Shown here piece after piece: positions 7,649 to 40,352 of a stretch of DNA of 64,000 bases (position 1 is its first letter; each line of letters begins with the position of its first letter). The stretch comes from an uncultured Pseudomonadota bacterium (GTDB taxonomy: Bacteria > Myxococcota_A > Polyangia > Fen-1088): assembly GCA_963847705.1 (NCBI GenBank), contig CAWKBC010000030.1, positions 128,001 through 192,000 on the forward strand, read 5' to 3'. Under the pieces are notes generated by a model. The model saw only the letters and a program-made list of their open reading frames with translations. It had not been told where the DNA came from and ran no database searches. Position numbers and translations under genes: made by a program.

Positions 7649-7693
7649 TGTGCCCAGGGACAGAGTCGAACTGTCTACACACGGATTTTCAGT
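7649..7693 (-). repeat. att site: 45-bp duplicate of the 3' portion of tRNA-Phe
   Basis: tgtgcccagggacagagtcgaactgtctacacacggattttcagt is identical to 40278..40322. Confidence 0.97.
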
Positions 7694-7742
7694 GCCGGAA
7701 ACATGCGCGAAATCATGGAGAAAATCGAATATTCTTGCCTTT

Positions 7743-7763
7743 CTGTACCATAACTGTACCATA
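7743..7763 (+). promoter_or_regulatory. Putative integrase arm-type sites (2 x CTGTACCATA, 11-bp period)
   Basis: Copies at 7743 and 7754; same pair at 40167/40178; overlaps possible integrase promoter TTGCCT-N16-TACCAT. Confidence 0.75.
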
Positions 7764-7782
7764 AAACCCGGGTTTCAGAGCC

Positions 7783-8967
7783 ATGGGGCGGCCACCATCG
7801 AGAGCCCGGCGGGGCGACGGGAAGGTCTACAAGAGGGGACGTCTCTGGTCGATCCGCTGGACTGAGGACGGCGAGCGCTGCTACTCCGGCGGCTACCTGA
7901 CCGAGGAGGCCGCCAACCAAGTGCGGGCGGTCATCGCGCTGAACCACCAAGCTGGGCGACCGGGGCTCGAGAGGATTCGCCCGGAGAAGCCGGAGCCGCT
8001 CCCCACCTTCGGCGCGCTGGTCGGCGAATGGCTCGATGACAGAAAAGCCAAGGGGCGGAGATCGGTCGATGACGATCGCCGACGCTGGAATCGACACCTA
8101 GCGCCGCTCCTCGCTCATCGCAGGCCGGATGCTAGCATCGACACCGGTTTTCTCGATCGGATGATCACCGATCTGCGAAGTCCCCCCGTCGGCAGCCTCG
8201 ATCCGAGGGGGCGCCCCAAGAAGGGCCTCTCGCCCGGCACGACGCAGCGCATTGTCCACCTGCTGTCGGCCTTCTACGTGTGGCTTGGCAAGCACCACAG
8301 CGTGCCGAGCAATCCAGTCCGCACCCTGAAAGGGGACGGGGACATCCGGGATCTCCTGCGCTCGACCCACGATCCGAAGCGGGTCCCGTTTCTCAAGCGC
8401 AAGGAGGATGTGGCGGCCCTCTTCCAGGCGCTGCCCAGCTCCATCAACATCGTCTACGCACTCGGTGCCCTAGCCGGGCTGCGGCCCGGAGAGGCGGTCG
8501 CTCTCGAATGGGAGGCGGTCGATTTCGACGCCGGGATGATCCTGGTCCGCCGGCAGCTTCGGGAGGGGCGACTCGGCGTTCCCAAGAGCGGAAAAGAGCG
8601 GGAGGTCCCGATCGTGCCGAGTCTTTCGGTCGTCCTCAAAGCCTGGCGCAAGAAGAACCCGAAAGCGGAGCTCGTCGCGCCGAGTCTCCGCAAGAGCCAG
8701 ACCGGCAAGACGAAGTTTCTCAACTGGCGGACCATCAAGAACGCCATGAAGACGGCTCTCAAGAAGTGCGGCCTTAAGCCCATGACCTTCTACCAGGCGG
8801 GACGACACACGTTCGCCTCGCAGTGGGTTATCTCCGGAAACTCGATCTACCGCCTCAAGGAGATCATGGGGCACAGCTCGGTGCAGGTGACCGAGCGATA
8901 CGCGCATCTGACGAATCAACTCACCGATGCCGAACTCGCGCGGGCAGACGTCAGGCTCGCGAGCTAA
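7783..8967 (+). CDS. Tyrosine recombinase / phage-type integrase
   Basis: GLRPGEA (R), PKSG (K), GRHTFAS (R), MGHSSVQVTERYAH (H, Y); N-terminal arm-binding-like GKVYKRGRLWSIRW. Confidence 0.95.
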   Translation: MGRPPSRARRGDGKVYKRGRLWSIRWTEDGERCYSGGYLTEEAANQVRAVIALNHQAGRPGLERIRPEKPEPLPTFGALVGEWLDDRKAKGRRSVDDDRRRWNRHLAPLLAHRRPDASIDTGFLDRMITDLRSPPVGSLDPRGRPKKGLSPGTTQRIVHLLSAFYVWLGKHHSVPSNPVRTLKGDGDIRDLLRSTHDPKRVPFLKRKEDVAALFQALPSSINIVYALGALAGLRPGEAVALEWEAVDFDAGMILVRRQLREGRLGVPKSGKEREVPIVPSLSVVLKAWRKKNPKAELVAPSLRKSQTGKTKFLNWRTIKNAMKTALKKCGLKPMTFYQAGRHTFASQWVISGNSIYRLKEIMGHSSVQVTERYAHLTNQLTDAELARADVRLAS

Positions 8968-9014
8968 TGGTGCCGACGGAATCGGAGGCGGTTCGGGACA
9001 AACTTCTTCTGCCT

Positions 9015-9180
9015 GCGGCGGACCAGGCGAAGGTCGAACCAACCCGAATCGGCTTCGTGTACGCACTTTCGCTGGTCTGCCGCGAATGGCAGCGAGCGAA
9101 CGCGCCTCGCGCCGCTATCGGCAACATCCCCCGCGATCTGGCTACTCTGCGCCTCAACCTCAAGCGGCTCGTCCTCCTAG
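9015..9180 (+). pseudogene. Possible C-terminal remnant of an IS4-family transposase
   Basis: ADQAKVEPTRIGFVYALSLVCREW..GNIPRDLATLR resembles IS4 transposase tails (from memory). Confidence 0.45.
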
Positions 9181-9258
9181 CAGGCTGCTGAAAAAGCAGC
9201 TTCGGGGGATCGACAGGGGATCCCGGTGTGATCTCCTCTCGGTATGCGAGGAGAACCT
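9177..9258 (+). mobile_element. Possible left-end scar of an IS5-family element
   Basis: CTAG followed by CAGGCTGCTGAAAAA (IR-like), then ATGCGAGGAGAA (MRGE, typical transposase start) at 9244; no transposase body. Confidence 0.45.
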
Positions 9259-38618: not shown

Positions 38619-38667
38619 GACTGCTCGGTCCGTTGCGTCGTCTGGCTGAGTCATTCTTCGGGTCGTC

Positions 38668-39207
38668 ATGTCCAAGCCTGTTAAGCCCGCAATCGTCATC
38701 CTGGCCGCTGGAGTGATCGCACTGGCGATTGTTCTCATCGCGTTCGTTTCACGCGACAGGCGATCGGTACCGGCGCCGATTGAGACCCAAGACCCCCTCG
38801 TCGCGGCGACTCCGCCGCTGCTCAGTGGACCTGCCGCGGAGCCCCGGCCACCGTTTCCTGCCGCGTCGGCGACGGGACCCCCAGTGCGCATTGCAACGAA
38901 GTCAGATGCTGAGAAGCCACTCGACGAGACATCGCTGATGACCAAGCTGCATGACCTGGCGGCATCGGATCCGTCCCTGTCGCTGAGCTTGGCGAAGGAA
39001 GCGCTCCATCGTTTTCCAGACAGCCCCAACGCTCCAGAATTCAACTGGAATCTGGTCAAAGCTCTTTTCAACATGGGCCGCGTTGAAGAGGCGCAGGAAG
39101 AGGCTCGGACAATGATCGCGAAGTATCCGGGCAACGACTTTGCAGGTGACGTCGACCATCACCTGCTGAACCATCCGCCGAACCCGTCGGATGTTCCTAA
39201 TCCGTAG
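38668..39207 (+). CDS. Membrane-anchored Pro-linker + TPR-like protein
   Basis: N-terminal TM; Pro-rich; LAKEALHRFPDSPNAPE..KALFNMGRVEEAQEEARTMIAKYPG. Confidence 0.7.
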   Translation: MSKPVKPAIVILAAGVIALAIVLIAFVSRDRRSVPAPIETQDPLVAATPPLLSGPAAEPRPPFPAASATGPPVRIATKSDAEKPLDETSLMTKLHDLAASDPSLSLSLAKEALHRFPDSPNAPEFNWNLVKALFNMGRVEEAQEEARTMIAKYPGNDFAGDVDHHLLNHPPNPSDVPNP

Positions 39208-40006
39208 ATGCCAAGACCGCGCGTCGTCGTGCTGTTGATGGGGAGCGCGGGCCGTCGGCGTCGGTCGCGGGGGTACCGCCGCTGAGCGTTCCGTAGCCGC
39301 TGTTCGATAGCCCTGTGCTCGTCTGGTGCGTCCACAGGCTCCCTGTCTTGCCGAGCGACGTGACGTCGGCGATCACCAGCGAATCGACCTGGTCGCGGCG
39401 CAGTGAAGCGCCCGCGTTGGCCAGCACGCTGGCGTAGGCGGCGGCCGCGGTCATCGTCGGGATGCTGGCGGTGGTCGGCGACCAGGGGGCGGTCAACGCC
39501 GTGGCGCCGCCGGGCGGACCCATGGTGCTGCCGTTGAGCGTCCCGTCCTTGTTGCTGTCGAGCAGGTTGCCGGTGAAATACATCTGCTGGGTGTTGACCT
39601 GGTAGATCGCGTCCGAGGCCGACGTCGTGGCGGGACCGCTCACGAAGTAATTGTTCACCAGATCGTGCGTGAAAAGGCCGCCGGTGTTGCCCGCGGTGTA
39701 CCCGGCCTGGAAATCGTAGACCACGTTGTTGATGTACTGCGTGTTCGCCTTGGCCAGCGGGTTGCGGTTGTGCGCGTTCGCGAACACGTTGCGGTACCAG
39801 GTGTAGGGGTCCGTCTCGGTGTGGGCGTTGAACTGCTGCCCGATCGGGTCGGCGTCGATCGAGTTCATGACCGTGATGTTCGAGGCCCCGACCGCGTCGA
39901 TGTTGTTCCACTGCGCGAACTCGACCGACACGTGATCGAAGATCATGTTCGTCGCGTCGAGCAAGTTGATGCCGCTCTTGCTCGAGTCTGGGTCGAGGTC
40001 ACCCTG
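39197..40006 (-). pseudogene. Pectate lyase (PL1-like) fragment
   Basis: NMIFDHVSVEF, FANAHNRNP, YINNVVYD, LVNNYFVSGP, VLANAGAS..RDQVD; no signal peptide or N-terminus, breaks off after TDADG. Confidence 0.75.
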
Positions 40007-40166
40007 ACAGGCTGCTCGTCCGTGCGGCCGAAGCCTGGCGGGCAATCTCGCGGCGCCGGTGCGCTGTCAGAGCATGCGCGCGGGCTTTTCCGCCCTTGGC
40101 ACCACCAAGGCGCCCCAGAGCGACCGCATGAGGGTGACGTCAGGCTGGTCTTCCTCAATGGTCCGT

Positions 40167-40187
40167 CTGTACCATATCTGTACCATA
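40167..40187 (+). promoter_or_regulatory. Putative integrase arm-type sites (2 x CTGTACCATA, 11-bp period)
   Basis: Copies at 40167 and 40178, 90 bp inside the right att. Confidence 0.75.
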
Positions 40188-40279
40188 TCGCCGGTTATTC
40201 GGGGGTACCGGACATACCCAGGAGTACCCACCCCACGCGGCCGACCTTCAAAACCAGCGGAAATTGCACGGATCTGCTG

Positions 40280-40352
40280 TGCCCAGGGACAGAGTCGAAC
40301 TGTCTACACACGGATTTTCAGTCCGTTGCTCTACCAGTTGAGCTACCTGGGC
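40280..40352 (-). tRNA. tRNA-Phe(GAA)
   Basis: GCCCAGGTAGCTCAACTGGTAGAGCAACGGACTGAAAATCCGTGTGTAGACAGTTCGACTCTGTCCCTGGGCA: 7-bp acceptor stem, anticodon GAA, TTCGA loop; CCA not encoded. Confidence 0.97.

Follow-up and report, generated by a model that had tools for sequence, protein, structure and literature searches.

A tRNA-Phe island with glycanase cargo and a candidate transfer origin in an uncultured Fen-1088 myxobacterium

How did eleven carbohydrate-active enzyme (CAZyme) genes come to lie between two copies of a tRNA-Phe attachment (att) site, and could the DNA that carries them still move? The question is raised by a 64,000-nucleotide stretch of DNA (hereafter the window; C30:128001-192000), inside a 563-kb contig of an uncultured Fen-1088 myxobacterium (G000, GenBank assembly GCA_963847705.1). 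This metagenome-assembled genome (MAG) is 6.1 Mb in size, with 69% GC (69.1%), 85% completeness and 6% contamination; C-numbers denote its contigs, G001-G025 are congener genomes and L-numbers are loci or metagenome contigs of relatives. The window holds an att-bounded integrative island of 32.7 kb at tRNA-Phe, which is real. We give a probability of roughly 0.55 to the reading that it is a mobilizable island lacking its own relaxase, of the type known as iOriT or mobilizable genomic island (MGI), which would have captured and delivered its cargo. Judging from sequence comparison, its backbone (integrase, arm sites, a toxin–antitoxin (TA)-like pair and a likely origin of transfer, oriT) is part of a mobile-element family of the genus.

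Island ends and integrase

The island is delimited by a 45-bp repeat that is exact, as the initial annotation had claimed, occurs in just two copies in the 6.1-Mb genome and is the longest exact dispersed direct repeat of the window (Table 1). Its right copy forms the 3' half of tRNA-Phe(GAA), and the tRNA is intact, i.e. restored. Inside each end stands a tandem pair of 10-bp repeats found in the genome at 7743-7763 and 40167-40187 alone, which are likely integrase arm-type sites. The integrase, also rightly described as intact-looking, has R234, K268, R341, H364 and Y373, all invariant across 24 aligned sequences; the first His of its HxxR motif is replaced family-wide and Y337 is invariant. 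Full-length relatives, 88–94% identical, adjoin the same att core, in L199-L201 with other flanks and cargo. The next-best integrases in the genus reach 38–47% identity, and the top two of them lie at tRNA-Leu; a search of GTDB contigs with the integrase gave no relative.

Both junctions were found again in independent assemblies. The left ydjM-att junction recurs in G021, L203, L209 and L210, and the junction of right end, att and tRNA in G017 and L210. Positions 40163-40322 are 95% identical in G001, and the right end is also present in L200, L201, L207 and L210. We considered ydjM as a fixed neighbor of tRNA-Phe and rejected it: 18 of 24 congeners have ydjM, with an att copy beside it in G021 alone.

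The same site in relatives bears other contents. All 13 congener tRNA-Phe loci (3' cover <1 kb to 20 kb) are devoid of the CAZyme block, the presence of which would have told against its arrival with the island. The empty site that the initial annotation proposed for comparison, with the tRNA directly beside ydjM, was not seen among the relatives' loci examined; the nearest approach is the metagenome contig L210, which reads ydjM, att, a 1.9-kb remnant, tRNA-Phe and kup, with flanks 87–90% identical. G001 has two tandem elements at tRNA-Phe, the second of which shares the island's right end (95%) and its block of TA pair and non-coding DNA (95.5%) and carries none of its CAZymes. The proposal of an integrative island at a hotspot is thus borne out, in that the same backbone parts recur with other cargo. 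That proposal had overlooked the TA-like pair, two extracytoplasmic function (ECF) sigma modules and a 290-bp non-coding stretch; some dozen genes with regulatory or backbone roles went unmentioned in it.

Candidate transfer origin, probable cargo exchange and possible mobility

That conserved stretch (10314-10600) is likely to be an oriT. Over about 280 bp it is 83–85% identical to DNA in G000 (C14 and C21) and G017 that stands directly 5' of a ribbon-helix-helix (RHH)-like gene and a relaxase gene, the RHH label being one that we assume from gene position, as Pfam gave no name. The relaxase behind this similar DNA is a 585-aa DUF3363 protein; the C14 element sits at tRNA-Ala and the C21 element at tmRNA. 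Matches were found at 16 other places in 26 genomes, 8 of which immediately precede an RHH-like gene; in 7 of those 8 the locus examined also contains a relaxase. A fourth long match, in G001, has neither RHH-like nor relaxase gene, as in the window. The stretch corresponds to no known RNA family, since a search of Rfam over 7000-41000 returned the tRNA as its sole match. Next to it, the putative toxin matched no family, PHROG or PDB entry and owes its label to its helix-turn-helix (HTH) partner, which alone of the two has a family match; a 97% identical protein occurs in the G001 element.

The absence of uptake and transfer genes stated by the initial annotation stands for the genes: among the island open reading frames (ORFs) scanned, no TonB receptor, transporter, catabolic, relaxase, type IV secretion system (T4SS) or phage-structural family matched, and tblastn in the window gave no match to seven queries for xis, T4SS and other functions of integrative mobilizable elements (IMEs) or to four for relaxase and RHH proteins. 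It needs qualifying for the candidate oriT, which would act in cis.

As for the cargo, some part of the island's left half matches in 25 of 25 congeners and of its right half in 24 of 25, at 72–92% nucleotide identity. The blocks stand there in other orders and other places, in examined regions without a tRNA, and none of the 25 keeps the island's gene order. In G003, GH5, AraC-GH16, GH26 with ECF module 2 and GH26-TPR follow one another; an AraC-GH16-GH26-TPR block of G001 stands some 460 kb away from tRNA-Phe; and G023 divides its copies between two contigs, one with the second GH29 gene (GH29b), GH43 and module 1, the other with the first (GH29a), CE12 and GH53. The cargo, on these matches, is a mosaic of genus-native blocks. 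We used ccmF and an aminotransferase as housekeeping yardsticks because an rpoB search of the 85%-complete own genome gave no match. The aminotransferase is 81.8% identical in G002 and 90.8% in G003, whereas the module 2 lipoprotein PL-like2 is 92.4% against 80.0%, the module 2 sigma factor ECF2 91.0% against 83.1%, and the pectate-lyase-like (PL1) piece 90.0% in G002. ccmF ranks the two genomes likewise, the G002 match being partial. Since the identities invert between housekeeping and cargo genes, they point to lateral exchange of cargo inside the genus, in a direction that these identities do not give.

Together these parts suggest how the island might move. The integrase would excise it and reinsert it at the 45-bp core; a relaxase from a co-resident element, of which G000 has two intact DUF3363 genes (on C14 and C21) with similar upstream DNA, would nick the candidate oriT; and the mating pore would come from a third element. 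The cargo would have been captured from congeners.

Several observations weigh against mobilization. No motif fitting the MOBP nic consensus was found in the candidate oriT or in three homologues, so that the stretch could be a mere promoter remnant; the relaxase-linked homologues lack that consensus too. Three HTH_17 queries found no excisionase or recombination directionality factor (RDF) in the window, although a divergent RDF could escape them. The assembly's sole coupling-protein gene, on C4, is split over three frames, which leaves no intact helper pore in evidence. No circular form was seen and no sequencing run was found to contain the strain (best share of its sequence words 0.14, and no RNA run among those listed); contigs from five runs gave relatives' pieces only and nothing on excision in the own strain. 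At the same site L209 has the AraC gene (96%) and the end of GH16 with the integrase deleted, and a GH54 gene where the TA pair and oriT would stand; cargo can therefore outlast decay of the backbone, which counts against a single recent arrival. Lastly, the identity inversion comes from a single, much fragmented MAG (G002, with 540 contigs) and from the tree of one housekeeping gene, and a binning error in G002 is possible.

Such points lend some weight to a less probable but quite possible history, in which an old tRNA-Phe element no longer moves, CAZyme blocks have piled into it by recombination, much as in cis-mobilizable elements (CIMEs), and the stretch akin to relaxase-upstream DNA is what remains of a promoter region. 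G021 fits this account: it shares the flanking ydjM-att arrangement (att 89% identical), which there encloses 10.3 kb of different genes, several with Gly linkers and none matching the integrase. The integrase remnants in L209 and L210 fit it too, as do the rearrangement of the cargo relative to G003, G001 and G020, a deletion junction at about 39250 and the failure to find xis or an intact helper pore. It sits poorly with att copies that are 100% identical, an intact integrase, all four arm-type repeats kept, and a candidate oriT retained without a relaxase in two different islands (G000 and G001). Nor does it sit well with L200, L201 and L207, where the right end, core and integrase are joined in the form expected from tandem integration or a circle. 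On this balance we prefer the mobilizable island.

G000 has other elements too. Repeats of tRNA or tmRNA 3' ends also mark integrated elements at C14:162976-188628, C21:255151-326282, C35:62257-84787, C40:32234-65535 and C10:170688-172218. A further cluster at C4:15700-33999, presumably Tn4371-like, runs from RepA to trb genes and includes ParA, DUF2840, TraF, DUF3363 and the coupling protein, with frameshifts that reflect either decay or sequencing error.

Cargo genes and the host repertoire

The eleven CAZyme genes are intact, as first claimed: their ORFs have no internal stop and keep the motifs that we take, from family knowledge, to be catalytic. The accompanying PL1 fragment is likewise confirmed as a truncated piece. 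Pfam assigned GH16, GH26 (three genes), GH29 (two), GH43, GH53, GH5 and two GDSL/SGNH esterases, which upholds most of the activities first proposed, with two amendments. The GH26 protein at 12856-14199 is nearest to the GH26 domain of Endoglucanase H, presumably a lichenase, and not to mannanases. The PL1 label is weak, as the piece matched nothing in Pfam or PDB and a 46%-identical paralogue matches Pectate_lyase_4 at just E=0.0035. G002 has the complete gene, of which the piece represents the middle part. The cut at 40008 falls exactly where element DNA starts; at the left cut (about 39250, a deletion) the piece abuts the first part of a second TPR-like gene, which is whole in G003. A Cys-ending signal peptide is present in 10 of the 11 CAZyme translations, and all but GH16 have a long Gly/Thr linker; the inferred start of the GH26 gene at 37128 lies inside a longer ORF (36057-38618). 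The AraC gene accompanies GH16 in congeners. The predicted targets, by family, are mannan, beta-glucans, arabinan, galactan and fucosides, at least four unrelated glycans. The lipoprotein enzymes, on their long Gly/Thr tethers, would cut these polysaccharides and their fucosyl and acetyl decorations at the surface, and the host's own transporters would take up the released sugars.

Table 1. Features of the island, in window coordinates.
Feature	Coordinates	Strand	Basis
att core copy, left boundary (duplicated 3' half of tRNA-Phe)	7649-7693	-	100% match to 40278-40322
Tandem 10-bp repeat, likely integrase arm-type sites	7743-7763	+	kept beside related integrases
Tyrosine integrase, 394 aa, intact	7783-8967	+	PF00589; phrog_1
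Putative toxin of TA pair, 172 aa	9244-9762	+	inferred from neighbor
HTH protein, putative antitoxin	9759-10145	-	HTH_3 and addiction-module antidote matches
Non-coding candidate oriT region	10314-10600	+	83–85% to relaxase-upstream DNA in G000 C14, G000 C21 and G017
AraC-family regulator	10980-11840	-	Pfam
GH16 lipoprotein, beta-glucanase-like	11859-12731	-	PF00722, BglS-like match; EIDIE motif
GH26 lipoprotein, Endoglucanase H-like (likely mixed-linkage glucanase)	12856-14199	-	PF02156; best PDB match Endoglucanase H, E 1e-62
GH29 alpha-L-fucosidase lipoprotein	14467-16152	+	PF01120
GDSL esterase lipoprotein, CE12-like	16175-17851	+	PF00657, weak PaeY match
GH43 arabinanase-like protein, MYXO-CTERM tail	17871-19376	+	PF04616; AbnA best NCBIfam match; TIGR03901
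GH53 galactanase lipoprotein	19500-21029	+	PF07745
Cys-rich lipoprotein, no family match	21026-21973	+	76% paralogue adjoins CE12 copy on C12
GH29 + F5/8 (CBM32-like) lipoprotein	21992-24010	+	PF01120, PF00754
ECF module 1	24046-28140	-	Pfam/NCBIfam; paralogous module on C32
Module 1 LamG lipoprotein	24046-24846	-	Pfam/NCBIfam
Module 1 putative anti-sigma	24852-25541	-	inferred label
Module 1 ECF sigma	25541-26239	-	Pfam/NCBIfam
Module 1 PL-like lipoprotein	26363-27151	-	
Module 1 putative small outer-membrane barrel	27148-about 28140	-	
SGNH esterase lipoprotein	28269-29456	+	PF13472, weak AxeA1 match
GH5 endoglucanase/xyloglucanase-like lipoprotein	30180-31769	+	PF00150; PDB matches endoglucanases, xyloglucanases
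GH26 mannanase lipoprotein	32226-33626	-	PF02156; PDB matches beta-mannanases
ECF module 2	33677-36921	both	conserved in Polyangia
Module 2 PL-like lipoprotein (PL-like2)	33677-34456	-	PL20/Cip1-like jelly roll
Module 2 outer-membrane barrel protein	34456-35415	-	AlphaFold2 (AF2) model
Module 2 ECF sigma (ECF2)	35501-36160	+	
Module 2 putative anti-sigma	36160-36921	+	inferred label
GH26 lipoprotein	37128-38618	+	PF02156; signal peptide/lipobox
TPR membrane protein	38668-39207	+	TPR Pfam matches
Internal fragment of PL1-like gene, cut at both ends	39251-40008	-	90% to intact 621-aa gene in G002
Element right end	40009-40277	.	40006-40135 80% to C14:173841-173970 (C14 mobilizable element); arm-type repeats 40167-40187
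att core (40278-40322) within intact tRNA-Phe(GAA) (40279-40352), right boundary	40278-40352	-	sequence repeat and tRNA match

The initial annotation took this cargo for the equivalent of a polysaccharide utilization locus (PUL), one co-regulated plant-cell-wall unit that gave the host a new trait. Eleven intact glycan-active genes within 28 kb, an AraC regulator and two ECF modules speak for such a unit. We consider it improbable, given mosaic blocks on both strands, no susC/D or transporter, several unrelated substrates, a gene order kept in no congener and, in a search over 126 lipoprotein genes, no upstream motif shared by the island CAZyme genes. The host's own repertoire also argues against a new trait. 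Gly-linker ORFs number 190 in G000, of which the island accounts for 11 and the remainder of the genome for 179; in 126 of the 190 a lipobox precedes the linker. Among 67 of the outside ORFs, scanned from dense clusters, 30 match glycoside hydrolases, 1 a pectinesterase and 3 GDSL esterases (E<=1e-8). SusD is without a match throughout the 85%-complete genome and the three TonB receptors all lie outside the island; a CAZyme block free of SusC/D is this host's normal state and not an oddity. Since SusD is lacking genome-wide and larger CAZyme clusters are already present, the island supplements a trait that the host possesses in any case. The reliance on host uptake that was first proposed fits what is encoded elsewhere in the genome, namely 4 sugar-binding proteins and 13 MFS proteins over the cut-off, one SSF gene, UxaC and AraA; some of these transporter and catabolic genes sit inside other CAZyme clusters. 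Of 8 further genomes from the host's family, 4 contained GH29, as did 3 of 72 from other families.

Two of these clusters merit description. The one at C1:125000-230264 (105 kb, 30 Gly-linker ORFs) is far larger than the island and has six GH54 genes along with GH10, GH11, GH27, GH29, GH30, GH31, GH39, GH43, GH44, GH141 and araA. The other, at C27:470000-590000, is of pectin type (CE8, two GH28, two GH43, GH53 and GH88); genes for an SSF transporter and a sugar-binding protein lie close by, and it is a better PUL-like candidate than the island. The upstream-motif search, in which many patterns were tested, found ACAA-N15-CAG enriched, in 9 of 126 lipoprotein upstream regions vs 9 of 2491 in the background, and upstream of no island CAZyme. 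Six of the nine genes are on C1, and the pattern is possibly an ECF promoter or a regulator site of the C1 cluster.

A single foreign cassette from a distant phylum (e.g. Bacteroidota or Firmicutes) is very unlikely and largely refuted: the island's GC of 66.1% vs 69.1% for the genome and its tetranucleotide distance (about 8th among 170 windows) would suit it, against which stand the myxobacterial Gly/Thr linkers, the MYXO-CTERM tail, the 72–92% matches in congeners and the 76–82% identical paralogues in G000 itself of CE12 (82%, on C12), its Cys-rich neighbor and GH5 (82%, at C30:5616-7130). That repeat and block are an assembly or binning artefact is hardly credible even for a MAG with 6% contamination and no reads of the strain found, as the island is interior to its 563-kb contig and its junctions recur elsewhere, that of ydjM, att and integrase in L203 and that of right end, att and tRNA in G017 and L210.

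The two ECF modules are more unusual than the island. A four-gene set of ECF sigma factor, putative TPR anti-sigma, barrel and PL20/Cip1-fold lipoprotein is kept across Polyangia, and among 45 loci with the PL-like protein a barrel gene is present in 35, an ECF sigma in 31 and a putative anti-sigma in 28. The AF2 model of the barrel protein has a C-terminal OmpA/NspA/OmpW-like barrel after a small N-terminal domain (mean pLDDT 80), and that of the PL-like lipoprotein a PL20/Cip1-like jelly roll (pLDDT 95). The module is likely a trans-envelope glycan sensor. Paralogues lie at C32:188852-193223, C8:85239-87725 and C27:408548-410432. In two other genomes (L192 and L197) the same module stands within about 5 kb of tRNA-Phe, and the tRNA-Phe neighborhood therefore repeatedly attracts such genes.

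Outside the island, the left flank (70-6874) holds a polysaccharide-synthesis-like block with GT4, a PKD protein, a double alpha/beta hydrolase and two divergent hexapeptide acetyltransferases that are 71% alike; its GC is lower (65.5%), and it is possibly an insertion of earlier date. The potassium-uptake genes kup and kdpABC stand together 5' of tRNA-Phe (40362-50000), and kup is near tRNA-Phe in several congeners too. Short intergenic tandem repeats of 10, 14 and 18 bp occur at 1459-1528, 58720-58857 and 58961-59125.

Comparison with known systems

If the island is mobilizable, it offers a concrete route for reshuffling the CAZyme repertoire among species of an uncultured soil myxobacterial lineage, and it provides a short stretch (10314-10600) that lends itself to testing jointly with two relaxases. 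A broader and rather doubtful extension is that a still-mobile island shuttles tethered glycanases and cassettes of ECF sigma, barrel and lectin-like sensor among these bacteria, swapping plant-fiber specificity as plug-in blocks through a chain of three elements (island, relaxase donor and pore donor). A literature search, in which subscription journals were thinly covered, brought up no work on myxobacterial CAZyme islands or on islands in Fen-1088.

The element type itself is well known, and this is not a new sugar-uptake system. With no conjugation or virion genes of its own, the island is neither an integrative conjugative element nor a prophage. In the sections available of one recent study (bioRxiv 10.64898/2026.01.13.699239), oriT regions are defined as intergenic DNA upstream of relaxase genes, and relaxase-less carriers, named iOriTs, are described as common; its iOriT section covers six nosocomial species and stresses virulence and defence cargo, in place of which the island has glycanases. 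Vibrio MGIs of the MGIVflInd1 family, as described in part of PMC5704250, measure 18–33 kb and encode an RDF. The island resembles these systems in its tRNA-type att site, its single tyrosine integrase, its size within the Vibrio range, its non-coding DNA akin to what precedes the relaxase genes of co-resident elements and its want of relaxase and mating-pore genes. It differs in that no RDF was found, that its likely relaxase donors are themselves IMEs and that its oriT is a candidate. For comparison on the relaxase side, the portion of PMC8627217 at hand, on rlxS-type relaxases, gives no oriT sequence.

The CIMEs and tandem accretion treated in the same part of PMC5704250 find a likeness in relatives with decayed integrases, in differing cargo between the same att sites and in tandem junctions, whereas here the integration module survives, with its integrase intact, the att cores perfect and the arm-type repeats present. 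Bacteroidota PULs, on the excerpted account of PMC6499787, likewise group surface CAZymes and regulators, ECF sigma/anti-sigma pairs among them; the island differs in having no susC/susD pair or transporter, several target glycans where a PUL has one, an unconserved gene set and a mobile backbone.

For the host lineage, the extracts of PMC9700909 and bioRxiv 10.64898/2026.07.10.737566 describe Fen-1088 (Blaeremorphaceae) as Polyangia with 68–71% GC, genomes of 3.5–7.8 Mb and many GH29 and other GH and PL genes, and in those extracts mobile islands are not discussed; the latter, in the same portion, reports extracellular CAZymes and sugar transporters as widespread in Myxococcota MAGs. The size, GC and GH29 enrichment of our host fit the description in PMC9700909, as far as that extract goes. 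Taken by sequence, the island has the traits of a tRNA-targeted island and most of those of an iOriT or MGI, the class in which we would place it.

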